From UHGV virus genome UHGV-0083175: a stretch of DNA of 52,653 bases; one strand, 5' to 3'. Position 1 is the first letter of the stretch. Each line of letters begins with the position of its first letter. The notes beneath the pieces are model-generated. The model was not told the DNA's origin and ran no database searches. It worked only from the letters and a program-made list of their open reading frames with translations. Positions 1-16,053 of the stretch are shown one piece after another. Made by a program: the position numbers and the translations under genes. This stretch comes from a virus.

Positions 1-49
1 TTTTGTTTACCTGCGGGTATTCTTTTGTTGTGTTTACTAAGGAGTAGTT

Positions 50-331
50 ATGGAAGAATTAAGAATATTTCTCAATTCTCTTTCGTCAGATGAACAGCGT
101 ATGTTTGCATGTGAGTGTGGTACTAGCATCGGTTATCTAAGAAAAGCATTGAGTAAAGGTCAAGTGTTAGGGGCATCGTTATGTGTCCTTATTGAGCGAG
201 CCAGTAATGGTGAAGTTACACGTCAGCAACTACGGCCTTTTGATTGGATGAACATTTGGCCTGAGCTGGAAGATACCCAAACGTTAACACAACCACTTTC
301 CAGGAGCTTGATTCATGAAAATCAAGCATGA
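50..331 (+). CDS. Cro/YdaS-family helix-turn-helix regulator
   Basis: 93-aa ORF; HTH-like segment GYLRKALSKGQVLGASLCVLIERASNGEVT resembles YdaS/Cro-type prophage regulators; first gene of the early rightward block. Confidence 0.55.
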   Translation: MEELRIFLNSLSSDEQRMFACECGTSIGYLRKALSKGQVLGASLCVLIERASNGEVTRQQLRPFDWMNIWPELEDTQTLTQPLSRSLIHENQA

Positions 332-752
332 ACATATCCGCATGGCAATGAATGCGTGGCTGCTTTATCCGAGGGTAGGGCGCAAAAAAATCGCTGATGA
401 TATAGCGACAGCATATTTTGAGCTTGAAATGACTTATCCACCAATGCATGACACCTCTACGACAGAGGGTATTGGATTGAACATACAAAATATTTTTCGC
501 TGGCTTGAAAAGGATACGCCTGATGCTGTTGAAAAAATTCAGGCACTAATTCCGGCTATCCTGACTGTTCTTCCGCGTGAACTGCGTTATCACCTCAGTA
601 TTTTTGACACTGTTGAGCGCCGTGCATTACTGGCGGCGCAGGAAGCGTTGAGCACGGCAATTGATGCACATGATGATGCAGTCCAGGCCGTTTACCGGAA
701 AGCGTATTTCAGCGACAGCGGGTCATCCGGCGAATCTGTTGTGGTGCATTGA
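315..752 (+). CDS. CII/YdaT-like prophage regulatory protein
   Basis: 145-aa ORF with AGGAG RBS; sits between Cro-like and replication genes as in Rac-type ydaS-ydaT-ydaU blocks. Confidence 0.4.
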   Translation: MKIKHEHIRMAMNAWLLYPRVGRKKIADDIATAYFELEMTYPPMHDTSTTEGIGLNIQNIFRWLEKDTPDAVEKIQALIPAILTVLPRELRYHLSIFDTVERRALLAAQEALSTAIDAHDDAVQAVYRKAYFSDSGSSGESVVVH

Positions 753-838
753 TATTTATGCCAGACCCCTGCTGATTCTGTTGATTGGGGAATCACAGAA
801 TATCACCAGAGGATGGTTCGTCACAAGATGAGGCAATT

Positions 839-1849
839 ATGGCCGCATTACCATACATGCAACTGTACATAGCTGATTACCTGGCTGACACCATGCATTT
901 GTCCGCAGAGGAGCACGGCGCGTATTTGTTGTTGATGTTCAATTACTGGCAAACAGGGAAACCAATACCTAAAAACAGGCTGGCAAAAATTTCCCGTCTG
1001 ACTAACGAGCGATGGGCTGATGTGGAACCATCCTTGCGGGAGTTTTTTTGCGATAACGGCGATGAATGGGTGCATCTTCGGATTGAGGAAGATCTGGCAT
1101 CAGTCAGGGAAAAATTAACCAAAAAATCAGCCGCCGGAAAAGCATCTGTTCAGGCCAGAAGAAGCAGAAAGGAAGCATATGTTCAAACAAAACAAGAGAG
1201 AGATTTAACAGGCGTTCAAACAAATGTTGGTGTTGTGTTTGAACATGACGCAAACACAAAAGCAACTAATAAAGATACAGATCTAAAAGAATTAAACCCC
1301 ACACATAACGTGCATGAACGCGAGAGTATTCCGACCAGTGAGTCGCATGGTGCGCCGTTGCAGACAGCCGAACCTGAATACCTGGACGGCCTGAGCGAAC
1401 CCATCGGGAAATTTTCGATGACTACTGTCTGGCAGCCGTCGCCGGATTTTCGACAACGGGCAGCAGTGTGGGGTATGGCTCTGCCTGAGCCGGAATTTAC
1501 ACCTGCTGAGCTTGCCGCATTCCGGGATTACTGGATGGCGGAGGGGAAGGTTTTCACGCAGGTTCAGTGGGAGCAGAAATTTGCCCGTCACGTGCAGCAC
1601 GTCAGGGCACAGGTAAAACCAGTCAGCAAGGGGGTAAGCCATGCAGCATCAGGTGGCACGGCATCACGGGCAGTTCAGGAAATCCGGGCAGCACGCGAAC
1701 AGTGGGAACGTGACAACGGATTTATCAGCAACGGAAACGGCCTGGAAGCTGTGGGAGCTTATGGGGGAGGTGTATTCGAACCGCTGGACTCAGAAGAACG
1801 GGGCCGCACCTTCGAAGCTCTGGATTGCCCAGATTGGTGCGATGACTGA
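839..1849 (+). CDS. replication initiation protein (DUF1376 N-domain, DnaT-like C-domain)
   Basis: ORF 785..1849; MAALPYMQLYIADYLADT motif typical of the DUF1376 N-terminus, so start placed at ATG 839; C-terminal FTPAELAAFRDYW resembles DnaT. Confidence 0.65.
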   Translation: MAALPYMQLYIADYLADTMHLSAEEHGAYLLLMFNYWQTGKPIPKNRLAKISRLTNERWADVEPSLREFFCDNGDEWVHLRIEEDLASVREKLTKKSAAGKASVQARRSRKEAYVQTKQERDLTGVQTNVGVVFEHDANTKATNKDTDLKELNPTHNVHERESIPTSESHGAPLQTAEPEYLDGLSEPIGKFSMTTVWQPSPDFRQRAAVWGMALPEPEFTPAELAAFRDYWMAEGKVFTQVQWEQKFARHVQHVRAQVKPVSKGVSHAASGGTASRAVQEIRAAREQWERDNGFISNGNGLEAVGAYGGGVFEPLDSEERGRTFEALDCPDWCDD

Positions 1850-2303
1850 ACAGCAAATCCGTCTGGTCTGCCGTCAGTGCATGGACCGCTGCCGGGCGGG
1901 TGAAACGTGGCCCCCGGACCTGGCTGAGTTTGTTGCGCTGATTTCGGAGAGTGGGGCAAATCCATTTGGTCTTACGGTGGATGCAGTGATGGAAGAGTAC
2001 CGGCGCTGGCGCAATGAATCCTGGCGATACGACGGGAGTGATAAATACCCGTGGCCACAGCCTGTGCTGTACCACATCTGCCTCGAAATGCGTACCAGAG
2101 GGATTGAGCGCCAGATGACGCAGGGTGAGTTAAAACGACTTGCGGAACGGCAACTGACGAAATGGGCAAAGCATGTTGGTAACGGGATGAGTGTTCCGCC
2201 AGTGCGACGACAACTGGAAGGGGCGAAACACCCGCAAGGGCCAACGCCAATTGAACGGCTGAAACAGGAATACGAACGCCGGAAGGCAGCTGGTTTTATT
2301 TGA
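1641..2303 (+). CDS. lambda P-like replication protein (helicase loader)
   Basis: 220 aa; C-terminal DKYPWPQPVLYHICLEMRTRG...GELKRLAERQL parallels lambda gpP; GGGGG RBS before ATG 1641; overlaps the upstream ORF by ~209 nt. Confidence 0.65.
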   Translation: MQHQVARHHGQFRKSGQHANSGNVTTDLSATETAWKLWELMGEVYSNRWTQKNGAAPSKLWIAQIGAMTEQQIRLVCRQCMDRCRAGETWPPDLAEFVALISESGANPFGLTVDAVMEEYRRWRNESWRYDGSDKYPWPQPVLYHICLEMRTRGIERQMTQGELKRLAERQLTKWAKHVGNGMSVPPVRRQLEGAKHPQGPTPIERLKQEYERRKAAGFI

Positions 2304-2336
2304 ATCTGAGAAACGATTTTGTCGGAGGAAATTTTA

Positions 2337-3053
2337 ATGGAAACCGTATTTGACGCACTGAAAGCACTGAAAAGAGCCTCTTCACAGGTAGTGGCGGCCC
2401 GCCTTGGAATCAGCCGTGAAGATGCGGTCAACGAACTGTGGAAACTGAAGCGCCGCGGTGAAGCGGATAACAAGGGTTCGATGTGGTGGCTGATTCAGGC
2501 TGGTGAAAGTGAACCGGTGTCACCGGTACCGAAAGTGACAGCGCAAATGCTGATTAAGGCGATTGAACAACATGGCCCACAAACGGCAGATGAGCTGGCA
2601 CTGATGTTCGGGATTACCTCCCGCCGGGCGAATTCATCGCTGGCCATGGCAATCAGCAAAGGGCGTCTGATTCGCGTGAATCAGGGCGGTAAATTTCGTT
2701 ACTGCATACCGGGCGCTGATTTACCGGCAGAGCCGGAAGCTGCATCCGTAGCGGAAACAGATGGTAAAGCCTTTCCTCAGCCAGCAGGTGTTGCGTTACC
2801 AGTCCGGGAAACGACGACACAGGAAGAAATGAAAACAGAAATCGTGGAAGACATTGTGAAGTTACAGCCATCGGTCACCGAAACGAAAGCAGATGACCTG
2901 ATTCTACCATCGCTGCATGTGGCTAACCGCGAGCTGCGCCGGGCAAAAGGTCAGGTTCAGAAGTGGGAGCGTGTCTGCGCCGCGCTGCGGGAACTGAACA
3001 AACACAGGGATATTCTCCGGGATATTACCGCCACCAGAGAGCTGCTGCGGTGA
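2337..3053 (+). CDS. hypothetical phage protein
   Basis: ORF 2319..3053; ATG 2337 has a GGAGGA RBS; no recognised catalytic motif. Confidence 0.45.
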
Positions 3054-3367
3054 GTGGCTGGAAGAAGTGGCGCTGGGCGGAAATTATGATACTCCGGCAG
3101 TGTGCGGGAACGATGACAGTCGAAAGCATCGGCAGTCTGATTGGCCGTAGTGGGGCTGCCGTCAGGACGAAAGCGCGGGAACTGGGTATCTGCATGATGT
3201 TACGGGGTGATTATCACCAGTCAGCCAAATGTTCACAGCGTGATATTGAGCTGGCGCGGCAACTGCATCAGCGTGGCGTACCCCGACGGGAAATTGCCGA
3301 AAAGTTTGGGATGAAGTTGGGCGCAGTGAATAACTACGTTTATTTCGACAGGAGGGTTCAGGCGTGA
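3050..3367 (+). CDS. putative HTH DNA-binding protein
   Basis: ORF in frame from GTG 3050 (alternative ATG 3086); C-terminal [21 protein letters not shown] resembles sigma-70 region 4 / LuxR-type HTH. Confidence 0.4.
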
Positions 3368-3705
3368 GGGTGAGAATTTATATCGCCGGTCCGATGACGG
3401 GATATGAAAATTTCAACCGTGAGGCGTTTCACAAGGCGGAAGAAGCACTGAAACAGGAAGGGCATACCGTATTAAATCCCGCAGTACTTCCGGACGGGCT
3501 GACTCAGCCACATTACATGGATATTTGCATGGCAATGATTCGTTGTGTGGATGCGGTTTATATGCTGAAAGGCTGGCAGCGGTCGGCAGGCGCTAAGGCA
3601 GAGCTGCACTGGCGGAGAAACTGGGGCATGCAGTTATTTTCCAGGAGGCAACCAGTGAGCGAAATTAATTACCAGGAACTACGGCAGGTGAAAGAGAAAG
3701 CATAA
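3364..3705 (+). CDS. DUF4406-family protein (nucleoside deoxyribosyltransferase-like fold)
   Basis: GTG start overlapping the upstream stop; N-terminal RIYIAGPMTGYENFNREAFHKAEE is characteristic of the phage DUF4406 family. Confidence 0.55.
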   Translation: MRVRIYIAGPMTGYENFNREAFHKAEEALKQEGHTVLNPAVLPDGLTQPHYMDICMAMIRCVDAVYMLKGWQRSAGAKAELHWRRNWGMQLFSRRQPVSEINYQELRQVKEKA

Positions 3706-3815
3706 TCCAGAACTGAATAATTAAAATCAGCACTGTAAATAAAATTTAATCCTTAACCGGAGGGATTCCTGCACCCTCAGAACATCAGGAGACCGCCCGG
3801 CAGGGCGGTAGTGAA

Positions 3816-3998
3816 ATGCGAAAGTTCAAAATAATTATTGAAACGGGAATCGCCGGTGGAGATTCCGAGGATGAATTCGAAGTGAATGATGATGCGACGC
3901 CTGATGAAATTCATAACGAAGCAAAAGAAATTTTCTTTAACTACTGCAATTACTCATATCACGAAATAAAAGACGAAGAGGAAGAACAAAATGGCTGA
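3816..3998 (+). CDS. hypothetical small acidic protein
   Basis: 60-aa ORF with GGCGGTAG-type RBS; highly acidic C-terminus. Confidence 0.35.
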   Translation: MRKFKIIIETGIAGGDSEDEFEVNDDATPDEIHNEAKEIFFNYCNYSYHEIKDEEEEQNG

Positions 3999-4167
3999 TT
4001 TTGGTTCAACTAAATACAACGTCAGTTTTGAAGAATGGCATGAACTGTTAATGGACTATGCAGAGTTACGTGGTGGAAGTGCCGCCGATGCTGAAGCATG
4101 GCGTGATGACTATGAAGCAGGAAAAACTCCGGTCGAAGCATATTGTGATGAGTGGGGCTATGAATGA
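3991..4167 (+). CDS. hypothetical small protein
   Basis: 58-codon ORF (MADFGSTKYNVSFEEWHELL...) not in the supplied track; ATGA overlaps with both neighbours suggest translational coupling. Confidence 0.35.
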   Translation: MADFGSTKYNVSFEEWHELLMDYAELRGGSAADAEAWRDDYEAGKTPVEAYCDEWGYE

Positions 4168-4679
4168 GCGAGATTAATTATCAGGAAGGGCATGAAACGG
4201 CAGGGCAGGCAAAACCAGTGGCATGGCGATATCGCTACGTGAAGAAAGACGTTACAGACTTTCAGGGGAAGCTGTGGGTTGGTGACTGGAAATATGTACC
4301 GACAAAAGAGGATTGCAACGACAGACCGAACTATGAAATTCAGGCCTTATTCATCGGCCCGCCAGTCCCGGTGACATCAGAAGGACTGGTTAAAGCTGTG
4401 CGCTTTTATGAACAGGTAAAGCGTGAGAATCCGCCAGTCGAAACAGGAGCATGGAAGGATGCTGTTGACTGGGTGCTCAGAGAGGCCTGCTGTGCTGCCA
4501 TTCTGGGTAAAGCCGACAATCCACCAGCATCCGGCAATCAGGTTAGCGAATTAGCAATGTGGGTTAAACGGCTGGTCAGCCAACTGAAAAAAGCGAAGCC
4601 GGACTGCAAATTACCGGATAAGGCGATGGACTACCTGAAGCGAAACGGACTGATAAACGAGGAGAATATTTTACGATGA
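4164..4679 (+). CDS. hypothetical phage protein
   Basis: 171-aa ORF, ATG overlapping the upstream stop; N-terminus MSEINYQE repeats the C-terminal motif of the DUF4406 gene. Confidence 0.45.
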   Translation: MSEINYQEGHETAGQAKPVAWRYRYVKKDVTDFQGKLWVGDWKYVPTKEDCNDRPNYEIQALFIGPPVPVTSEGLVKAVRFYEQVKRENPPVETGAWKDAVDWVLREACCAAILGKADNPPASGNQVSELAMWVKRLVSQLKKAKPDCKLPDKAMDYLKRNGLINEENILR

Positions 4680-4969
4680 CCTGGCCTGAAGCGTTCATAA
4701 CGGTAGGAATTGCAATGGCGGTGGCGCTGGTGGTGTATTCGATTTGCCGCTGGGGATAAAAACGGTTTGCGGGGAAAGAAGAGTTAAGTAGAATTGCTGC
4801 GGGTGCTTGAGGCTGTCTGCCTCGGGCATGCCGACGTAAGGCAGACAGAGAAAAGCCCCAGTTAACATTATGCGTCTTGCAGGACGCTTAACATTAATCT
4901 GAGGCCATATCTATGACTTGCACACTTAGATTAGCCTCTTATGCGCCGAAAGGCAAGGAGCAGCAGGCT

Positions 4970-5125
4970 ATGAAGCAGCAAAAGGCGATGCTAATCGCCC
5001 TGATCGTCATCTGTATTACCGTCGTTGTAACGGTACTGGTAACGAGGAAAGACCTCTGCGAGGTACGAATCCGAACCGGCCAGACGGAGGTCGCTGTCTT
5101 CACAGCTTACGAATCTGAGAAGTAA
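4970..5125 (+). CDS. hok: Hok/Gef-family membrane toxin (type I toxin)
   Basis: MKQQKAMLIALIVICITVVVTVLVTRKDLCEVRIRTGQTEVAVFTAYESEK is near-identical to HokD/RelF; internal Met of ORF 4913..5125. Confidence 0.85.
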   Translation: MKQQKAMLIALIVICITVVVTVLVTRKDLCEVRIRTGQTEVAVFTAYESEK

Positions 5126-6627: not shown

Positions 6628-6990
6628 ATGCTCATAGATTTGGTTTTACCTTACCCGCCGACGGTGAACACTTACTGGCGACGCCGTGGCAGCACATATT
6701 TTGTATCAAAAGCCGGGGAGCGTTATCGCCGGGCAGTGGCGCTTATTGTTCGCCAGCAGCGGCTGAAATTAAGACTGTCCGGACGGCTGGCAATAAAAAT
6801 TATTGCAGAGCCACCGGATAAGCGTCGTCGTGACCTGGACAATTTTCTGAAAGCGCCGCTGGATGCGCTGACGCATGCAGGAATGTTAATGGACGATGAG
6901 CAGTTTGATGAAATCAATATTGTACGTGGCAAGCCAGTATCTGGTGGACGGCTGGAGATAAGAATTACAGAGGTGGGTGTGCATGAATAA
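6628..6990 (+). CDS. rusA: Holliday junction resolvase RusA
   Basis: 120 aa; RRRDLDNFLKAPLDALTHAGMLMDDEQ and GGRLEIRITE align with E. coli RusA. Confidence 0.9.
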   Translation: MLIDLVLPYPPTVNTYWRRRGSTYFVSKAGERYRRAVALIVRQQRLKLRLSGRLAIKIIAEPPDKRRRDLDNFLKAPLDALTHAGMLMDDEQFDEINIVRGKPVSGGRLEIRITEVGVHE

Positions 6991-7648
6991 CCAGTATTTA
7001 CAGTTTGTTCGTGAGCAACTCATGATTGCCACTGCGGATCTTAGTGGGTCGACAAAAGGCCAGCTGGAAGTCTGGCAGGAAAATGCCCTGTTCGATACAG
7101 GGCGTTACAGACGCAAAAAAATTCGTTACCGCGATGAGGTAACCGGAAAAATGATCACGCGGGATAATCCCCCGATCCCGGGTAAACAATCACTGGCGAA
7201 AGGCTCATCAATTGCCCTGGTCAGTCCGGTTGAGTTTTCGACATCATCATGGCGACGCGCCGTTCTGTCTCTTGAAGAACATCATAAAGCCTGGCTGCTG
7301 TGGTGTTACAGCGGTAGCATTTGCTGGGAGCATCAGATCGCGATAACGCAGTGGGCGTGGACTGAATTTAATGCTCAATCCGGTACCAGAAAAATTGCAG
7401 GAAAAACTCTGGTGCGCCTGAAGACGTTGATCTGGTTGGCGGCGCAGGCGGTAAAAGCTGAGCTTTTTGGTGGGGAAGGTTACGAATACCAGGAACTGGC
7501 GTTACTGGTGGGAGTAACAACCAAAAACTGGTCCAAGACATTTACTGGTCACTGGGTTGCAATGAAACACATTTTTCATCGGCTGGATAGTGAAGCTTTA
7601 TTGTTGGTGGAGGGAACTCGTTCAAAACAAAAGGCGGCATTTTCATAG
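6983..7648 (+). CDS. late-gene antiterminator Q-like protein
   Basis: ATG 6983 overlaps the rusA stop (ATGAATAA); ~220 aa; immediately upstream of a strong promoter and terminator, as expected for Q / PR' / tR'. Confidence 0.55.
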   Translation: MNNQYLQFVREQLMIATADLSGSTKGQLEVWQENALFDTGRYRRKKIRYRDEVTGKMITRDNPPIPGKQSLAKGSSIALVSPVEFSTSSWRRAVLSLEEHHKAWLLWCYSGSICWEHQIAITQWAWTEFNAQSGTRKIAGKTLVRLKTLIWLAAQAVKAELFGGEGYEYQELALLVGVTTKNWSKTFTGHWVAMKHIFHRLDSEALLLVEGTRSKQKAAFS

Positions 7649-7655
7649 CAAAGTA

Positions 7656-7684
7656 TTGCAAAAGTAGACAAAAAGGCATATATT
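7656..7684 (+). promoter_or_regulatory. candidate late promoter (PR'-like) sigma-70 promoter
   Basis: TTGCAA (7656-7661), 17-nt spacer, TATATT (7679-7684), directly downstream of the Q-like gene. Confidence 0.5.
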
Positions 7685-7735
7685 TCGTGTAAATCTGATA
7701 TTTTGCCGTTATTATACGTGATGGCAAAGCCACTA

Positions 7736-7760
7736 AAACCCGTGACCGAGCGGGTTTTTT
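7736..7760 (+). terminator. candidate tR'-like terminator
   Basis: AAACCCG-tgaccgag-CGGGTTT followed by a T-run, ~50 nt downstream of the candidate late promoter. Confidence 0.5.
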
Positions 7761-7901
7761 ACCCCCCAAAAAATGGCATAGACATTAAACGTGATGACGA
7801 TTGTGCCAATACTTTCTCCATCAATGACGCCCCTTGACTGCATGGAATCCAATTTGTTATGTAATGTGTGTTGATATTTTTGAGTTGTTAATGGTGTTAC
7901 T

Positions 7902-8615
7902 ATGGATGACAGTGCTCTGCTCAGAAACTCTTCACTTTTTGTCGCTTATATGGGCTGTCTCGGATGGGGGAGCGCTTATTTCTATGGATGGGGTACTTCA
8001 TTTTACTATGGCTTTCCATGGTGGGTTGTCGGGGCTGGTGTCGATGATGTAGCACGAAGTTTGTTTTATGCTGTGACAGTTATTGTTATATTCCTTATTG
8101 GATGGGGAGTTGGTATTGTTTTCTTTTTGGGCATAAAACAAAAGCGCAATATACAAAATTTGAGTTTTATCCGGCTTTTTCTCGCGATATTGCTGCTTTT
8201 TATTCCACCTGTTCTGGAGTTTTCTGTAATTCATCAGCATGTTGAGCCAGATGTACTGATTTTCTGCGTTCTTGCTGCCTTTGCAATCACGCTTTTTGTC
8301 AGGTCTGGAAGAAGACTTGTTTCAGTCAAATGTTTTTCGGAAATGTCTGTTATTCGCCATCACCGAATTGAGTTCATGATGGCTGGGTTTATGATTTATT
8401 TCTGGGCATTCTCTCTTATTGCCGGTTGGTACAAACCACAGTTTAAGAGGGAATATCAGGCGGTCCACTATGAGAATGTATGGTATTACATTATTGCGCG
8501 CTATGATGATCGTCTGGTGTTATCGAAATCATACAGGAGTGGGGGTAAGAAATTCGTTATATTTAATAGCGGAAATATTAATGATTTTGAAATTAATACT
8601 GTCAGAGTACGTTAA
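7902..8615 (+). CDS. AT-rich multi-pass membrane protein (moron)
   Basis: 237 aa with several hydrophobic Trp/Phe/Gly-rich segments; markedly AT-rich relative to flanking phage genes. Confidence 0.5.
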   Translation: MDDSALLRNSSLFVAYMGCLGWGSAYFYGWGTSFYYGFPWWVVGAGVDDVARSLFYAVTVIVIFLIGWGVGIVFFLGIKQKRNIQNLSFIRLFLAILLLFIPPVLEFSVIHQHVEPDVLIFCVLAAFAITLFVRSGRRLVSVKCFSEMSVIRHHRIEFMMAGFMIYFWAFSLIAGWYKPQFKREYQAVHYENVWYYIIARYDDRLVLSKSYRSGGKKFVIFNSGNINDFEINTVRVR

Positions 8616-8788
8616 AATTTCCTGAGTAATAAAGATTTTACTGCCCGGCATTGAGCGGTTTTTTTATGCCAGAAAAATGGTGCAGTACATAAAATGTGCA
8701 GGTGGTTATTAATACCGGTCTTTCAGCTTGCTGGCTTTTTTGACAAGAGTTACTGGTGTGTCACGTTAACCGGAAAAGGGAAAAAGAC

Positions 8789-8986
8789 ATGCTGAAACAG
8801 CAGGATATGACAGAAACCGCCAGAGTGGTGTTTAATGAATTAAGCGTCACCGAACCGGCGACAGTCGGGGAGATTGCACAGAATACGTACCTTTCACGCG
8901 AACGCTGTCAGTTAATACTGACCCAGCTTGTTATGGCGGGTCTGGCAGATTATCAGTTCGGTTGTTACAGACGCCTTCAGTCCTGA
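8789..8986 (+). CDS. small winged-helix regulator (FaeA/PapI-like)
   Basis: ORF 8756..8986, start taken at internal MLKQQ; TVGEIAQNTYLSRERCQLILTQLVMAGL resembles FaeA-like HTH proteins. Confidence 0.35.
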   Translation: MLKQQDMTETARVVFNELSVTEPATVGEIAQNTYLSRERCQLILTQLVMAGLADYQFGCYRRLQS

Positions 8987-8997
8987 AGGCTTTTTTA
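8973..8997 (+). terminator. rho-independent terminator
   Basis: GCCTTCAG-tcc-TGAAGGC stem followed by TTTTTT. Confidence 0.55.
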
Positions 8998-9136
8998 TTT
9001 GTGGTAAATGGGCGGCTGGTGGGTGTTAGGGGCACTCACCAGCCATCTGCTCATGCGTTGGGGTCACAAGCAAACCTCAGGCCCACTGCTTTGCGCAAAA
9101 GCAGAATGAGCCTATCAGAGACAGGCTTAATGATCC

Positions 9137-10195
9137 ATGCTTAATACTGTAAAAATATCCAGTTGTGAGTTAATCAACGCCGACTGCCTGGAATTTATCC
9201 GGTCGTTACCCGAAAATTCTGTTGACCTGATAGTCACGGACCCGCCGTACTTTAAAGTGAAGCCTGAGGGCTGGGATAACCAGTGGAAGGGCGACGATGA
9301 TTACCTGAAGTGGCTGGACCAGTGTCTGGCGCAGTTCTGGCGGGTGCTGAAACCTGCCGGAAGTCTTTACCTGTTCTGTGGCCATCGCCTGGCATCTGAT
9401 ATCGAAATCATGATGCGTGAACGCTTCAGTGTACTGAACCATATTATCTGGGCAAAGCCGTCCGGACGCTGGAACGGGTGCAACAAGGAAAGCCTGAGGG
9501 CGTATTTCCCCGCCACAGAGCGCATTCTGTTCGCGGAACATTATCAGGGGCCGTATCGTCCGAAAGATGCCGGGTATGAGGCGAAGGGCAGGGCACTGAA
9601 ACAGCATGTGATGGCTCCGCTGATTGCTTACTTTCGTGATGCGCGTGCTGCCCTGGGGATAACGGCAAAACAGATAGTGGATGCCACAGGAAAGAAAAAC
9701 ATGGTGTCGCACTGGTTCAGTGCCAGTCAGTGGCAGCTACCGAACGAAAGCGATTATCTGAAATTACAGGCGCTGTTTGCCCGGGTGGCAGAAGAGAAGC
9801 ATCAGCGCGGTGAACTGGAAAAGCCCCACCACCAGCTGCTGGAGACGTATACTTCACTGAACCGGCAGTATGCGGAACTGCAGAGTGAATATAAGCATCT
9901 GCGGCGGTATTTTGGCGTGACGGCGCAGGTGCCGTACACGGATGTGTGGACGCATAAACCGGTGCAGTACTATCCCGGGAAACATCCGTGCGAAAAACCG
10001 GCAGAAATGCTGCAGCAGATAATCAGCGCGAGCAGTCGTCCGGGGGACCTGGTTGCAGATTTTTTCATGGGGTCGGGTTCGACAGTCAAAGCCGCGATGG
10101 CGCTGGGGCGTCGTGCAACAGGCGTTGAGCTGGAGACTGAACGTTTTGAGCAGACGGTCAGGGAAGTTCAGGATTTAGCCAGTCAGAACGGATGA
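9137..10195 (+). CDS. DNA methyltransferase (N6-adenine/N4-cytosine class, DPPY motif)
   Basis: 352 aa; DLIVTDPPYF catalytic motif near the N-terminus and a C-terminal AdoMet-binding FFMGSGST segment. Confidence 0.8.
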   Translation: MLNTVKISSCELINADCLEFIRSLPENSVDLIVTDPPYFKVKPEGWDNQWKGDDDYLKWLDQCLAQFWRVLKPAGSLYLFCGHRLASDIEIMMRERFSVLNHIIWAKPSGRWNGCNKESLRAYFPATERILFAEHYQGPYRPKDAGYEAKGRALKQHVMAPLIAYFRDARAALGITAKQIVDATGKKNMVSHWFSASQWQLPNESDYLKLQALFARVAEEKHQRGELEKPHHQLLETYTSLNRQYAELQSEYKHLRRYFGVTAQVPYTDVWTHKPVQYYPGKHPCEKPAEMLQQIISASSRPGDLVADFFMGSGSTVKAAMALGRRATGVELETERFEQTVREVQDLASQNG

Positions 10196-10235
10196 TATTG
10201 CAGGATTAGTTACGTACCGTTATTATCCTGCGCCC

Positions 10236-10310
10236 GGCCCTTTAGCTCAGTGGTGAGAGCGAGCGACTCATAATCGCCAGGTCGCTGGTTCAAATCCAGC
10301 AAGGCCACCA
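10236..10310 (+). tRNA. tRNA with CAU anticodon (ileX-like tRNA-Ile2/Met), acceptor stem one nt short
   Basis: Hand-folded cloverleaf: D-arm GCTC/GAGC, anticodon loop CTCATAA, T-arm GCTGG-TTCAAAT-CCAGC, 3' ACCA; 3' acceptor strand AAGGCC versus expected AAGGGCC. Confidence 0.55.
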
Positions 10311-10319
10311 TATCACATA

Positions 10320-10396
10320 CCGCCATTAGCTCATCGGGATAGAGCGCCAGCCTTCGAAGCTGGCTGCGCGGGGTTCGAGTCCTCGATGGCGGTCCA
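10320..10396 (+). tRNA. tRNA-Arg (anticodon UCG)
   Basis: Complete 77-nt cloverleaf: acceptor CCGCCAT/ATGGCGG, anticodon loop CTTCGAA, T-arm CGGGG-TTCGAGT-CCTCG, 3' TCCA. Confidence 0.8.
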
Positions 10397-10674
10397 TTAT
10401 CTGCATTATGCGTTGTTGGTTCTGATGAGTGAATCATTGTCTTTTGAGCAACAGGCTATCATATAAGATAGCCTCAGACTTCCTTGTTTATTCTCGCCGG
10501 ATGCTTCGTAGATATTTGCAGGCATCTGTATGCAGGGGTATTATTGCGGCATATATCATCCGGAAAAATAAAAACTACATGCTGATCCGGAGATGATAGT
10601 TACAAGTCCTCCCGGATCCCGCATATTTACTATATTTTATAGATAATTGTTCTTGTTAATATGGAGATGGATAA

Positions 10675-11103
10675 ATGTATTGCCGTGCTGTACCGGTTCT
10701 TGTTTTGATATTAGCCAGTCTGACAACTGGCTGCACAAAAGATGTATCGACAAATAATTATGATGCTTCTCTGTATCACTCAGATAAATTAATAAAGTCG
10801 CAAAATTTGAGCTCATCGGAACGTACCCCTGATGCCAGTGAAGAAATCCGGCTGTATGCCATTCAGGTCAGGAAAGCCATAGAAGAACAGTTAAAGGATG
10901 CGAGTAAGTATTCAGGAAAAGAGTGTTCACTGAGAATGTATATGGCCCCGAATGGTCTTCTGCTACAGGTTAAAAGAGAAAGCGGTGATCCCGATTTATG
11001 TCGTGAAGCGATGAATGCAGTAAAGAATGCTGATATACCATCACCACCGTCTTCAGGAGTATATAAAGCATTTAGAAATGGCGTGCTGGATTTTAAACTC
11101 TGA
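10675..11103 (+). CDS. lipoprotein with TolA C-terminal domain (TolA-III) homology
   Basis: Signal peptide with lipobox LTTGC; C-terminal ~90 aa (GKECSLRMYMAPNGLLLQVKRESGDPDLCREAM...VYKAFRNGVLDFKL) align with E. coli TolA domain III. Confidence 0.7.
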   Translation: MYCRAVPVLVLILASLTTGCTKDVSTNNYDASLYHSDKLIKSQNLSSSERTPDASEEIRLYAIQVRKAIEEQLKDASKYSGKECSLRMYMAPNGLLLQVKRESGDPDLCREAMNAVKNADIPSPPSSGVYKAFRNGVLDFKL

Positions 11104-11168
11104 CAGGGGGAGAAGATTTTCTCCTGTCCTGATGATTTTGGGGCGCTGGAAAGATATTGTGCTGTGAA

Positions 11169-11560
11169 GTGTTAAATCCCTCACAATTCAGTAAGTTGAC
11201 AGTTGCCTGTCAGACTGAGCATTTGTTAAAAAAATTTCGCATGGTGAATCCCCCTGTGCGGAGGGGCGACTGGTGAACGGTATGATCTCTTTGATGATCG
11301 TAAGCGAGAATACGCGGGTTTGGTGTCACCGGGCTGAACTCACCGGGAGGCACCCGGCACCATGCTCATGGTGATACAGAAATGCGGCTTCAGCCCCTCT
11401 CCGGAGGGGCTTTCTTATGGACAAAAAAAGCCCGCGCTGGGAGACGCGGGCGGCAAGGAATAAACAATAAAACGTGAAGTAATACTTCAACTGGCGAATA
11501 ATACCCGACAGTAATCACTCTGCGCAATAGCGCGGCCTTTTTCGAATTGCGGGCTGTAGT
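11169..11560 (+). repeat. structured repeat unit A (with 3' extension shared with unit D)
   Basis: Shares with three downstream units the blocks GTGTTAAATYCCTCACAATTCA, TTGTTAAAAAA, GCATGGTGAATCCCCCTGTGCGGAGGGG, CACCGGGAGGCACCCGGCA and a terminator hairpin. Confidence 0.8.
11239..11416 (+). ncRNA. candidate small RNA, repeat copy A
   Basis: Runs from conserved GCATGGTG to terminator GCCCCTCTCCGGAGGGGC + T-run; 5' CATGGTG can pair with 3' CACCATG; two internal hairpins. Confidence 0.35.
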
Positions 11561-11575
11561 CTCCCTTCTGCCGGG

Positions 11576-11735
11576 TGGCCTGGTTGCAGATTTCTTCATG
11601 GGGTAGGGTTCGGCAGTTAAAGCAGCGATGGCGCTGGGGCGTCGTGCAACTGGCGTTGAGCTGGATACCGGGCGTTTTGAACAGACTGCGCAGGAAATCA
11701 GGGATGTATTTAGCGGGAGCGGTTTGCAGAAGTAA
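11576..11735 (+). pseudogene. duplicated 3' fragment of the DNA methyltransferase gene
   Basis: ~150 nt nearly identical to 10041..10195; translates as GLVADFFMG*GSAVKAAMALGRRATGVELDTGRFEQ with an in-frame stop. Confidence 0.6.
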
Positions 11736-11798
11736 TCTCCCAAAATGCCATTTTTGGAATATACTGGTATTAAGTCTTTTTGCTCAGGTTAATTCAAA

Positions 11799-12524
11799 AT
11801 GGATGTTGCCTGCTCTGTGGTCCTGATTCGCTATCCGATAGATATTTTTCTTGAAAAAGAAAAAGTTTCACTCGATGCCGGAAGTGTTATGCTTGTTGCC
11901 AGAAATATAAGAGGGCTTTTCTGTGCTTATGCCGACAGAGTGAAAATGGCAGATATAAGTAACAGCGTCGTCAATCAGTATCTGGAAAGGGAGTGTGAAC
12001 TGACGGAGTATACACCGACAAAAATGCCTCTTTATTTGATGTCTGATATTTACAATACGGAACTGGCGGAGGCTTTAATAACCCAGCATAGTGAATCCAG
12101 TGATACTTTGAAGGATTTCTCTGTTATAACCGCATTTTCATGTATCTCCTTATTTGCAACAGACAGGCGTCTGCCATTATTTTTGTCCGGTGCTGTAAAT
12201 AATATCAGCTGTAAAGTAAGGGCTATAATTCAGACCGACATATCGGCAGGCTGGATGCTAGGTGTGATTGCATTACAATTGCATATGAGCGAAAGCTTGT
12301 TGAAGCGAAAACTTAAGGATGAAGGTTATAGCTTTAGTCGGTTGTTGCTGGAGGAGCGAATGCGTGTTGCTGTTAATCTTGTATGTTTCCAGCGAGAGTG
12401 TGGACAAGCGATAGCGGAAAAATGTGGTTACTCAAGTAAGTCCTATTTCATTTCTGTATTTCACCAGTATTATGGTGCACCACCTGAGAGCTATGCATAT
12501 TTGCAGAAAGCAGACGTTATCTGA
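11799..12524 (+). CDS. AraC-family transcriptional regulator (moron)
   Basis: 241 aa; C-terminal double HTH (GWMLGVIALQLHMSESLLKRKLKDEGYSFSRLL...IAEKCGYSSKSYFISVFHQYYGAPPESY); AT-rich. Confidence 0.6.
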   Translation: MDVACSVVLIRYPIDIFLEKEKVSLDAGSVMLVARNIRGLFCAYADRVKMADISNSVVNQYLERECELTEYTPTKMPLYLMSDIYNTELAEALITQHSESSDTLKDFSVITAFSCISLFATDRRLPLFLSGAVNNISCKVRAIIQTDISAGWMLGVIALQLHMSESLLKRKLKDEGYSFSRLLLEERMRVAVNLVCFQRECGQAIAEKCGYSSKSYFISVFHQYYGAPPESYAYLQKADVI

Positions 12525-12613
12525 TGTTTTTTCATCAGGCATATATTGATTGACTGTATTAGATATAGTCTGAATGTGTTCAGCATAAAAAGTTATAATC
12601 ATTTGGTGTTTGC

Positions 12614-12892
12614 GTGAATATTGATGAGAAAATCAGATGTAGCCAACTGTTACAGCGTATTGAAGCCGTCAATGTGGAACGAACAAAGGTCTTCAGTCGT
12701 CTGACAGTTTTATTTTGTACCCCTGATCGACGTTCAGGTCAGGAGATGGTTCTTCTGGATGTAGATGCACTTCGGAACGTCTGTGAGGAGTTCACCGCGG
12801 CTAATTCGGAGTTACTGAGTCTTGTTCAGGAGTACAACAGAATTGCAGGTAGTAACGGTTTTGATGAAATCAAAATTATATCCCGTGGATAA
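12614..12892 (+). CDS. hypothetical protein
   Basis: 92-aa ORF with GTG start downstream of the AraC-like gene; no recognised motif. Confidence 0.3.
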   Translation: MNIDEKIRCSQLLQRIEAVNVERTKVFSRLTVLFCTPDRRSGQEMVLLDVDALRNVCEEFTAANSELLSLVQEYNRIAGSNGFDEIKIISRG

Positions 12893-13210
12893 AACATATC
12901 CTGTATATTTATGTTGTTACATACAGGCGCTTTTAGTATCTGCCGCACGGCAGTTGTACTTTAGAATAAGATGCTTTTGTGACTGGTGGTGTTGTATCTG
13001 GGGTTAGCCAGGAGGCAGGTTCAGAGAGTCCGGTGGTAATTATGTGTATGCAGTGGTTGTTGCTGTACCGTGGGCAAGTTCTGGAACTGGCTTCGTCCAT
13101 TGTAGATGATTGTTAGCTGGATATCAGTTACCTCATGGAAATGTTAAATGACTCACAATTCGGTTGATGGACTATTGTCTGATCGATGGAAGTCTTGTAA
13201 AAACGAGCCA

Positions 13211-13377
13211 GCATAGTGAATCCCCCTGTGCGGAGGGGCGTCTGACATGGTCTCCATAGCGATGGTCACAATACGCAGATTCAGTAGTCAGGCTGAATCT
13301 ACCGGGAGGCACCCGGCACTATGCTGCTTATGGTGTATACATAGCGATCGGCCCCTCTCCGGAGGGGCTTTTTTTGT
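13211..13377 (+). ncRNA. candidate small RNA, repeat copy B
   Basis: GCATAGTG...CACTATGC long-range pairing (compensatory versus copy A), conserved hairpins, terminator GCCCCTCTCCGGAGGGGC + TTTTTTT. Confidence 0.35.
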
Positions 13378-13469
13378 GCGGGAAAAGGCTGTGTTGTTAA
13401 GTGTTAAATTCCTCACAGTTCAGATGGTTGATGCTTGCCTGTCTGAGGGGGAGTTGTTAAAAAAGTTCT

Positions 13470-13637
13470 GCATGGTGAATCCCCCTGAGCGGAGGGGCAT
13501 ATCAGCGCAGGTGTTTCTACTCTATCCTTTCTGTGCGGGTTCAGGTGCTGATACTGAACTCACCGGGAGGCACCCGGCATCATGCATATGGTTAACAGAC
13601 ACGTAGCGAAGCCCCTCTCCGGAGGGGCTTTTTTATG
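13470..13637 (+). ncRNA. candidate small RNA, repeat copy C
   Basis: GCATGGTG...CATCATGC pairing with one G-U wobble, conserved hairpins, terminator + T-run. Confidence 0.35.
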
Positions 13638-13729
13638 CAGGGAAAAGGCTGTGTTGTGAAATGTTAAATTCCTCACAATTCATGAGGTTGATGATTGTCT
13701 GATTGATGAGGAGTTTGTTAAAAAAAACG

Positions 13730-13884
13730 GCATGGTGAATCCCCCTGTGCGGAGGGGTGATATCGTATCATTTCATGTGTGGCCGACTGATATCACGGAC
13801 ATTTGTTCACCGGGAGGCACCCGGCACCTGCAGTATACAGAGATTAGGCATACATCCAGGCTCCTCATCGCAGGAGCCTTTTTA
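13730..13884 (+). ncRNA. candidate small RNA, repeat copy D
   Basis: Conserved 5' blocks; terminator replaced by compensatory variant GCTCCTCATCGCAGGAGC + TTTTT. Confidence 0.3.
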
Positions 13885-14115
13885 CATGTAAAAAAAACCG
13901 CTCCCGGGAAGAGCGGTTGGCAAGGAAGCAAGGAATAAATAACAAAACGTGAAGTAATTTATTCAGCACCCTAATAATACCTTAGAGTAATCACCTTGCG
14001 CAACTGTAAGGGCGTATTTCTTTTTTGCGGGCTGTTTTTCTGTGTGACTTTTGTGTTTCCGGAGGTCAGTCCGTGCCTTCTCTGACTCAGAACATTATCC
14101 CGGCCGGGAGGATTC

Positions 14116-16053
14116 ATGGCATTTAAACACTACGATGTGGTCAGGGCGGCATCGCCGTCAGACCTTGCTGAACGACTGACACAAAAACTGAAGGAGGGCT
14201 GGCAGCCATTTGGCAGTCCGGTGGTCATCACGCCTTATACCCTGATGCAGGCCATTGCGGCGGAAGGTGATGTCACCACACCAGTGGCGGTGACCGGTAA
14301 TGAGGGTAAGGCGGTGGCTGTCAGTGCCACCAGCGACCCGGAGTATTACTTTGTTGTGGTTCTGGCAGGGCAGTCAAATGGCATGTCGTATGGTGAAGGT
14401 CTTCCGCTGCCGGAGACATATGACCGTCCGGACCCGCGTATTAAGCAGCTGGCGCGCCGCAGTACGGTGACACCGGGCGGTGTCGCCTGTAAATATAACG
14501 ACATCATTCCGGCGGACCATTGTCTGCATGATGTGCAGGACATGAGCCGTCTTAACCATCCGAAAGCGGACCTGTCAAAGGGGCAGTACGGAACCGTGGG
14601 GCAGGGGCTGCATATCGCCAAAAAACTGCTGCCGTTTATACCGGCGAATGCGGGTATTCTGCTGGTTCCGTGCTGTCGTGGTGGTTCAGCGTTCACCACC
14701 GGAGCTGATGGCACATACAGTGACGCGAGTGGTGCCTCGGAGAATTCAGCGCGCTGGGGTGTGGACAAGCCGCTGTATAAGGACCTTATCGGTCGAACAA
14801 AAGCAGCACTGAAGAAGAACCCGAAAAATGTGCTGTTTGCCGTGGTGTGGATGCAGGGGGAATTTGATTTTGACGGCACGCCCGGAAATCACGCAGCACA
14901 GTTTGGTGCGCTGGTTGATAAATTCCGTGCAGACCTGACGGATATGGCAGGTCAGTGCGTTGGTGGCTCTGCTGGCGGTGTTCCCTGGATATGCGGGGAC
15001 ACGACGTATTTCTGGAAGCAGAAGAACGAATCCACCTGCCAGATGGTGTACGGCAGCTATAAAAACAAAACGGAAAAGAATATCCATTTCGTACCGTTCA
15101 TGACGGATGAGAACGGGGTGAATGTGCCGACGAACAAACCGGAAGAAGACCCGGACATTCCGGGTATCGGGTATTACGGTTCGAAATGGCGTGACAGCTC
15201 AGCCACCTGGACGTCACAGGACAGGGCGAGCCATTTCAGCACCTGGGCACGCCGGGGGATTATTTCCGACCGTCTGGCAACGGCGATTCTGATTCATGCA
15301 GGACGAACCACAGTAAAAGTCGATGCTCCATCTTCTGAAACTGGCGCACCGACGCCATCACCGTCAGAAAATGAAGCGGTAAGCACAACAACACTGCTGT
15401 CTTACCGTGCCAGTGAGTCTGAAGGGAGGCTGACCGAACAGGGCTGGAGTGCTGGCGGAGGTAAAGCGGAAATTGTTGCTGATGAAGGTGCAACAGGTGG
15501 TACCGCGATGAAGCTGAGCAAGGAGACAGGAGTGGGGTCATGGTATCTGGAGCATGATGCCGGTACTGGCGCTGAACTGCTGAAAAATGGCGGTTTAATC
15601 AGCTGCCGCTTTAAGGCATCCGGTGAACTGGTAGCAAATCAGTATGTCATTGCACTTTACTGGCCGGTTTCCTCTCTGCCGCAGGGTGTCACCCTGACAG
15701 GGGATGCAGGGAATAATCTGCTGGCAGCGTTTTACATCCAGACAGATGCAAAAGACCTGAATGTGATGTACCACAATGCGAAGGTGGCGACAAATAACCT
15801 GAAACTGGGAAGCTTTGGCGCATTTGATAACGAATGGCATACGCTGGCTTTCCGCTTTGCCGGGAATAACAGCCTTCAGGTGACGCCGGTTATTGATGGT
15901 CAGGATGGCACACCGTTCACGCTGACGCAGTCACCGGTCAGTGCATTTTCGGCGGATAAGTTGCATGTGACAGACATTACCAAAAGTGCGACTTACCCGG
16001 TACTGATAGACAGCATTGCGGTGGTAGTGAATAACGCGGACGCCGCGGCATGA
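14116..16053 (+). CDS. nanS-p: NanS-p-like sialate O-acetylesterase (SGNH/SASA hydrolase)
   Basis: 645 aa; VVVLAGQSNGMSYGEG active-site region; size and position (upstream of the lysis cassette) match nanS-p of Stx phages. Confidence 0.75.
   Translation: MAFKHYDVVRAASPSDLAERLTQKLKEGWQPFGSPVVITPYTLMQAIAAEGDVTTPVAVTGNEGKAVAVSATSDPEYYFVVVLAGQSNGMSYGEGLPLPETYDRPDPRIKQLARRSTVTPGGVACKYNDIIPADHCLHDVQDMSRLNHPKADLSKGQYGTVGQGLHIAKKLLPFIPANAGILLVPCCRGGSAFTTGADGTYSDASGASENSARWGVDKPLYKDLIGRTKAALKKNPKNVLFAVVWMQGEFDFDGTPGNHAAQFGALVDKFRADLTDMAGQCVGGSAGGVPWICGDTTYFWKQKNESTCQMVYGSYKNKTEKNIHFVPFMTDENGVNVPTNKPEEDPDIPGIGYYGSKWRDSSATWTSQDRASHFSTWARRGIISDRLATAILIHAGRTTVKVDAPSSETGAPTPSPSENEAVSTTTLLSYRASESEGRLTEQGWSAGGGKAEIVADEGATGGTAMKLSKETGVGSWYLEHDAGTGAELLKNGGLISCRFKASGELVANQYVIALYWPVSSLPQGVTLTGDAGNNLLAAFYIQTDAKDLNVMYHNAKVATNNLKLGSFGAFDNEWHTLAFRFAGNNSLQVTPVIDGQDGTPFTLTQSPVSAFSADKLHVTDITKSATYPVLIDSIAVVVNNADAAA

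Follow-up and report, generated by a model that had tools for sequence, protein, structure and literature searches.

Between the late antiterminator gene Q and stx, Stx phages carry a cluster of three tRNA genes in the order ileZ-argN-argO. The first of them, ileZ, is an accessory tRNA-Ile2 gene with a CAU anticodon, the product of which depends on lysidine and reads AUA. The names ileZ, argN and argO rest on the GenBank annotations of the phages 933W, Min27, Lahn2 and Stx2a_F765; a search of a limited literature collection returned nothing relevant on any of the three genes, nor on the allele described below. E. coli K-12 encodes a chromosomal tRNA-Ile2, ileX, with a CAU anticodon that is likewise modified with lysidine. 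A passage in PMC11947777 that cites Ikeuchi et al. 2005 reports that lysidinylation by E. coli TilS relies on the pairs 4:69 and 5:68. Without the modification, tRNAIle2(CAU) is a substrate of MetRS, and E. coli IleRS does not recognise it (PMC3575796).

The window, i.e., the whole stretch of 52,653 nucleotides analysed here (UHGV virus genome UHGV-0083175), contains an ileZ-type gene that lacks one G in the 3′ strand of its acceptor stem (the “GG” allele; Table 1). Taken as a whole, the evidence makes it likely that this is a real GG allele of the ileZ of a non-Stx lambdoid prophage of E. coli and that the gene is inactivated or badly impaired.

Table 1. Features of the tRNA locus and its surroundings (positions in the window)
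Feature	Position	Strand	Basis and remarks
Late antiterminator Q gene	6977..7648	+	Pfam PF06323, E=1.3e-90
N6/N4 DNA methyltransferase (MTase) gene	9137..10195	+	Pfam PF01555, E=5.8e-44; directly upstream of the tRNAs
Candidate promoter, TTGCAG-N17-TATTAT, then GC-rich CCTGCGCCC	10198..10226	+	By eye only
ileZ-type tRNA gene, deletion (GG) allele	10236..10310	+	75 nt including encoded CCA; ARAGORN, Rfam
5′ acceptor strand GGCCCTT	10236..10242	+	Unchanged, without compensating deletion
3′ acceptor strand AAGGCC	10301..10306	+	6 nt versus 7; alignments with relatives
argN-type tRNA-Arg gene, anticodon TCG at 10353-10355	10320..10396	+	Intact; ARAGORN, Rfam
argO 5′ remnant (tRNA-Arg UCU of Stx phages)	10410..10455	+	Alignment to argO of Stx2a_F765 and Lahn2
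TolA C-terminal-like protein gene	10675..11103	+	Pfam PF06519; at the stx position of Stx phages
AraC-type gene	11799-12524		
NanS-p-like esterase gene	14116-16053		

Sequence and fold of the ileZ-type gene

From its 5′ end, the gene reads GGCCCTT (5′ acceptor strand), TA, a D arm of the form GCTC-AGTGGTGA-GAGC and a single G; an anticodon arm (AGCGA-CTCATAA-TCGCC), AGGTC and a T arm (GCTGG-TTCAAAT-CCAGC) follow, and the 3′ end consists of AAGGCC, the discriminator A (10307) and CCA (10308-10310). All arms of a class-I tRNA are present, with the anticodon CAT at 10269-10271. What the gene lacks is the canonical 7-bp acceptor stem with a 2-nt connector: the G-run at 10303-10304 is GG in the window, whereas the relatives have GGG (tRNA positions G68-G70). 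The initial annotation, which had described a 75-nt ileX-like tRNA with a CAU anticodon and a 3′ acceptor strand one nucleotide short, was accurate to the base, and its label “ileX-like” is borne out by the intact allele, which equals K-12 ileX at 68 of 76 positions. The body of the gene is that of a tRNA-Ile2, as judged by its CAU anticodon and its likeness to ileX, and not that of an elongator or initiator tRNA-Met; RefSeq names GGG and GG copies alike tRNA-Ile.

The prediction programs detect the gene, and neither returns a correct fold for it, in keeping with the defect noted initially. ARAGORN reports a tRNA-Met(cat) at 10235-10309, i.e., with the start moved one base upstream, the acceptor stem of which contains two non-pairs (one C.A at the top and one inside) and is followed by a connector of 3 nt instead of 2. 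The Rfam family RF00005 matches 10236-10307 with 59.8 bits (E=1.6e-10, gathering score 29), and its alignment puts the deletion in the 3′ acceptor strand; the intact ileZ allele scores 72.5 bits, so that 12.7 bits are lost with the missing G. The canonical fold cannot accommodate the loss of one base from the acceptor stem, a lesion of the kind that marks tRNA pseudogenes.

Distribution and authenticity of the deletion

When a 301-nt query around the tRNAs was searched against phage records and 5426 complete E. coli genomes, 284 phage records matched, nearly all of them from Stx-converting phages, with up to 98.9% identity and one extra base in the subject; prophage matches were found in 3058 of the 5426 genomes. 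Over the tRNA region, the identity is 98.9% across 268 nt to many Stx2 phages, and 933W reaches 97.6% over a shorter, 84-nt query. Alignments show GGG in the ileZ of Stx2a_F765, in four E. coli prophages, in phage Lahn2 and in K-12 ileX. As the comparison proposed in the initial annotation brought out, every aligned ileZ of Stx phages and prophages reads AAGGGCC at the point where the window reads AAGGCC, and the missing G is the sole difference within ileZ between the window and these relatives.

The GG allele is rare. The 84-nt query, centred on the deletion and searched against the same 5426 complete genomes and against phage genomes, was found at 7169 places in 2948 E. coli genomes, and just one of these places, in the cerebrospinal fluid isolate E. 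coli N51, matched exactly over the full length; in the phage genomes, none of 289 places matched the GG form exactly. The exact 24-nt pattern across the deletion (GGTTCAAATCCAGCAAGGCCACCA) had no match in a set of contigs with one genome per species and none among the IMG/VR viral contigs. N51 is the best match of the whole collection for this module, with 99.9% identity to the window over 10206-15291; it is not the source of the window, from which it departs upstream of ~10206. In a four-way alignment with the two next-nearest genomes, the window and N51 agree against both at 19 derived sites, including the G deletion.

Further carriers were found by using the exact sequence of the TolA-like protein as a handle in a large assembly collection. 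All eight contigs that encode the identical protein have GG. Six of them are NCBI drafts and one is the complete genome CP027484.1; the eighth, from an ENA human-gut metagenome (ERZ918891, k127_19356, 64,790 nt), is 100% identical to window positions 7675-14103 and probably represents the source of the window or the same strain. The window, N51 and these eight contigs constitute a set of ten GG loci, which was compared with five GGG loci over 3195 columns (~3.2 kb); all gap columns had been removed, so that the deletion itself had no influence. The ten loci form one shallow clade with 0-6 differences among them and 12-20 differences to the GGG loci. The 5′ 67 nt of ileZ do not differ between any of the GG and GGG loci examined, and the ten GG copies show no further change in the tRNA. 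With a divergence of ~0.1% in the clade, fewer than 0.1 changes would be expected per 75 nt; the absence of further lesions is uninformative, because the clade is too young and shallow.

The deletion is almost certainly a real allele, as judged from these alignments. A length change in a mononucleotide run is a classic type of error, and the allele occurs in just 1 of the 5426 RefSeq complete genomes, as it might if the true sequence were GGG and a homopolymer miscall had dropped one G; such an artefact is nonetheless exceedingly improbable. GG is found in ten independent assemblies, one contig of which bears a name typical of short-read metagenome assemblers, it follows the clade of the flanking haplotype whether the deletion column is counted or not, and thousands of assemblies with identical local context read GGG. 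Since the allele tracks its haplotype across ten assemblies of different kinds, a miscall cannot explain it. The window also shows no second private indel: against the three closest RefSeq genomes, it has 16 private substitutions and this G as its one private indel in 6.3 kb, and the open reading frames (ORFs) flanking the tRNAs are full length. The initial suggestion of a sequencing error in the G-run is rejected on these grounds. The single clade suggests that the deletion arose once and was then moved between prophage backbones by recombination.

Several apparent carriers proved to be different. In phage Lahn2, the match of which has the same length as the query, the run is GGG and the length is due to a separate 1-nt deletion in the spacer between ileZ and argN. 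The 301-nt matches in 07-4299 and 88-3493 lack a C upstream of the tRNA and not the G. A single metagenome contig, OJHJ01000183.1, matched the 24-mer; this contig resembles neither the window nor N51 apart from an isolated 3′ tRNA half, and no tRNA is called by ARAGORN around the match. This half, at 2960-3010 of the otherwise unrelated contig, ends in ...GGTTCAAATCCAGCAAGGCCACCA and may be an att-type duplication of a tRNA 3′ end from another organism.

Prophage context and exchange of the module

The Q gene upstream places the tRNAs in the late-regulatory region of a lambdoid prophage. Two small ORFs are located between Q and the MTase gene, and the lysis and structural genes lie beyond the NanS-p-like esterase gene; no stx is present between the tRNAs and this esterase gene. 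The TolA-C-like protein has 142 residues, bears the RefSeq label “cell envelope integrity protein TolA” and could interfere with Tol-dependent uptake of colicins or phages. In the early region of the prophage, a sok antisense RNA (RF01794, 113 bits) at 4801-4975 marks a locus of the hok/sok type of toxin-antitoxin systems.

The region of the candidate promoter ends 9 nt before position 1 of the tRNA. A promoter and terminator scan of 9900-10900 returned no site before the tRNA, and the TTGCAG-N17-TATTAT motif was below its threshold. The breakpoint of recombination with the N51-type backbone (~10206-10217) falls in the spacer of this motif. A minus-strand ORF of 75 residues (10210-10437) that runs over both tRNAs is confined to conserved tRNA sequence, and chance is the simplest explanation for it.

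The GG module, with its 0-6 differences per 3.2 kb, is found behind at least five upstream architectures (loci L011-L018, L005 and the window): (i) a DUF1133 protein with a weak Phage_antitermQ match, followed by the MTase; (ii) a PF03589 antiterminator, followed by the MTase; (iii) in the window, the PF06323 Q, an ORF of 237 residues and the MTase; (iv) in N51, Q directly upstream of the tRNAs, with an identity to the window of only 88.6% further upstream of ~10206; and (v) Q, followed by a protein kinase and a PP2C phosphatase. The GG loci of the MTase type alone have three different antiterminator-type genes upstream. This arrangement suggests that lambdoid prophages have exchanged modules very recently, a process in which the GG allele would have been carried by recombination, together with a module of ~4-5 kb comprising the tRNAs and the TolA-like and AraC-type genes, into several prophage backbones.

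Four copies of the prophage small RNA STnc100 (RF02076, 119-172 bits) are located within 2.7 kb downstream of the tRNAs, at 11210-11422, 13182-13377, 13441-13640 and 13702-13889, three of them in tandem. The last copy has a one-base deletion of an A at ~13828 (GGCACC-TGCA), in a long-range helix, which is common to the window and N51 and not present in HY220605 and STEC1587; with it, the haplotype has two structured RNA genes that have each lost a single base.

The neighbouring tRNA genes

Downstream of Q, the window does not have the complete ileZ-argN-argO order; it has the deletion allele of ileZ, argN and a remnant of argO. The adjacent tRNA-Arg(UCG) is intact, as had been stated initially: argN has a perfect 7-bp acceptor stem in ARAGORN, and its Rfam score of 55.1 bits equals that of its relatives. 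The 21 nt 3′ of argN are identical to Stx2 phages, and the stretch that follows is ~69% similar to the 5′ part of argO. In this remnant of ~46 nt, a likeness to the D and anticodon arms and to the 5′ acceptor strand can still be made out, whereas nothing is left of the T arm or the 3′ acceptor strand; an Rfam tRNA search at 10410-10455 gave no match even at E<=10. The remnant is common to the window and all prophages of the TolA-like type that were examined. The tRNA cluster thus appears to be eroding stepwise, with argO affected first, ileZ next in the GG clade and argN still intact; the decay of argO would be earlier than the lesion in ileZ.

Predicted effect on tRNA function

Elongator tRNAs share a constant geometry of the acceptor and T arms; the 12-bp stack formed by these arms, likewise constant, is required by RNase P, EF-Tu and the ribosome, and lesions of the acceptor stem usually lower the levels of mature tRNA. 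The base deleted from the GG allele belongs to G68-G70, which pair with C5, C4 and C3. Paired in register, the shortened strand allows G1-C, G2-C, C3-G and C4-G, C5 is either bulged or opposite an A, and two U-A pairs follow. As to the pairs C4:G69 and C5:G68 attributed to TilS recognition, C5 has no G partner in register. With the cloverleaf imposed, ViennaRNA yields -29.7 kcal/mol for the intact allele and, for GG, -24.3 kcal/mol with the four top pairs only or -22.6 kcal/mol with the bulged stem, i.e., a loss of 5-7 kcal/mol for the GG stem. Structures had to be imposed for this comparison, because even the intact allele does not adopt a cloverleaf as its minimum free energy fold; the unconstrained folds, in which the acceptor helix decreases from 7 to 4 pairs, are of limited value, as neither allele gives a cloverleaf.

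The sequence thus suggests that the ileZ of the window is quite probably functionally crippled, and the lesion could act in the following manner: The acceptor/T-arm stack of the GG tRNA would be shortened or kinked. The pairs C3:G70 and C4:G69 would preclude C5:G68, with little or no lysidine formed as a result. Processing by RNase P would presumably be poor and the stability of the tRNA low. Any tRNA that did mature would keep C34 and behave as a weak Met acceptor, not as a reader of AUA, and the AUA-decoding supplement of the prophage would be lost or nearly lost. Such a loss would be tolerated, because the host has an ileX of its own and the prophage lacks stx.

It is unlikely that the allele is a neutral variant whose product is still a functional, AUA-reading tRNA-Ile, with RNase P, TilS, IleRS and EF-Tu all tolerating a 6-bp or bulged 7-bp stem. 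In favour of this reading, the deletion has spared the D, anticodon and T arms, A73, the encoded CCA and the four top G-C pairs (C4:G69 among them), the Rfam score of 59.8 bits is far above the threshold of 29, and the allele has persisted and been spread by recombination. Yet C5:G68, one of the two pairs that TilS requires according to the passage cited above, cannot form in register, a helix that is one base short on one strand has an altered acceptor/T-arm geometry, the stem loses 5-7 kcal/mol and GG is absent from the 289 phage-genome places and from IMG/VR. The NCBI pipeline, which annotates the N51 copy as an ordinary 75-nt tRNA-Ile with no pseudogene flag, likewise speaks against a loss of function.

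A switch of identity is very unlikely: the GG tRNA would escape TilS, be processed, keep C34 and be charged by MetRS to serve as an extra elongator tRNA-Met. The unmodified tRNAIle2(CAU) is indeed accepted by MetRS and not seen by IleRS (PMC3575796), and TilS, in the passage cited, needs acceptor-stem pairs that are disturbed in the GG allele; the bulged tRNA would, however, have to be stable and accepted by both MetRS and EF-Tu, and there is no apparent selective benefit, since AUG is not a limiting codon. That the GG tRNA is processed, stable and at work in vivo with a non-canonical stem (6 bp or bulged), be it still modified with lysidine or as a Met-accepting CAU tRNA that has escaped TilS, is distinctly unlikely. 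If true, bacteria would offer a natural case of an elongator tRNA that copes with the loss of a base from one strand of its acceptor helix and is maintained in circulating prophages; such a tRNA, unlikely as it is, would be a handy natural substrate to probe the tolerance of RNase P, TilS and IleRS to distortions of the acceptor stem.

A crippled ileZ agrees with the initial suggestion of a decaying phage tRNA, inasmuch as the acceptor-stem lesion is real and inherited and this lineage already has no more than a remnant of argO. The alternative suggestion of a tRNA in need of repair found no support: nothing in the locus points to repair or editing, and we know of no bacterial mechanism that restores an internal nucleotide of an acceptor stem. 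The GG allele is at least not strongly deleterious, because it has spread into several prophage backgrounds. It appears to be an ordinary disabling mutation and a case of ordinary gene decay.

Implications

Annotation pipelines label the GG copy a normal tRNA-Ile or tRNA-Met despite its defective acceptor stem. Because the defect goes unflagged, copies that are dead or impaired can enter counts of phage-supplied tRNAs for rare codons in E. coli prophages. The allele also illustrates the stepwise erosion of ileZ-argN-argO where the stx cargo is absent, and the occurrence of one shallow clade behind at least five upstream architectures indicates that a small module moves fast between lambdoid prophage backbones.

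Comparison with known systems

The ileZ genes of Stx phages (933W, VT2-Sakai and the Stx2a phages) are identical to the gene of the window over 75 nt except for the missing G. In Stx phages and in the window alike, argN follows after the same 9-nt spacer, and the genes lie downstream of Q and upstream of a NanS-p-like esterase and the lysis genes. Four differences set the window apart: (i) one G of G68-G70 is deleted; (ii) argO is present only as a remnant; (iii) stx is missing, and the TolA-C-like gene, the AraC-type gene and the STnc100 copies occupy that space; (iv) a DNA methyltransferase gene is inserted between Q and the tRNAs.

With K-12 ileX, the gene shares the CAU anticodon, a stem that starts with GGCC and contains C4 and C5, A73 and the layout of the D- and T-loops. 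Where the intact ileZ departs from the 68 of 76 positions it has in common with ileX, the change from C6:G67 to U6:A67 is compensated. In contrast, the allele of the window has one G fewer than ileX in the 3′ strand and cannot form a 7-bp stem; A27.C43 is found in place of the G27.U43 of ileX.

The sister prophages of the TolA-like type (for example, those of E. coli 2014C-3338, HY220605 and STEC1587) have the same module and gene order, with 99.0-99.3% identity and the same argO remnant, but carry GGG in a 76-nt tRNA that scores 72.5 bits, whereas the clade of the window carries GG. The gene of the window is a member of the known ileZ family and, because the 7-bp stem and the TilS pair C5:G68 both fail, is best filed as a defective allele of it, a probable pseudogene, and not as a new kind of tRNA.
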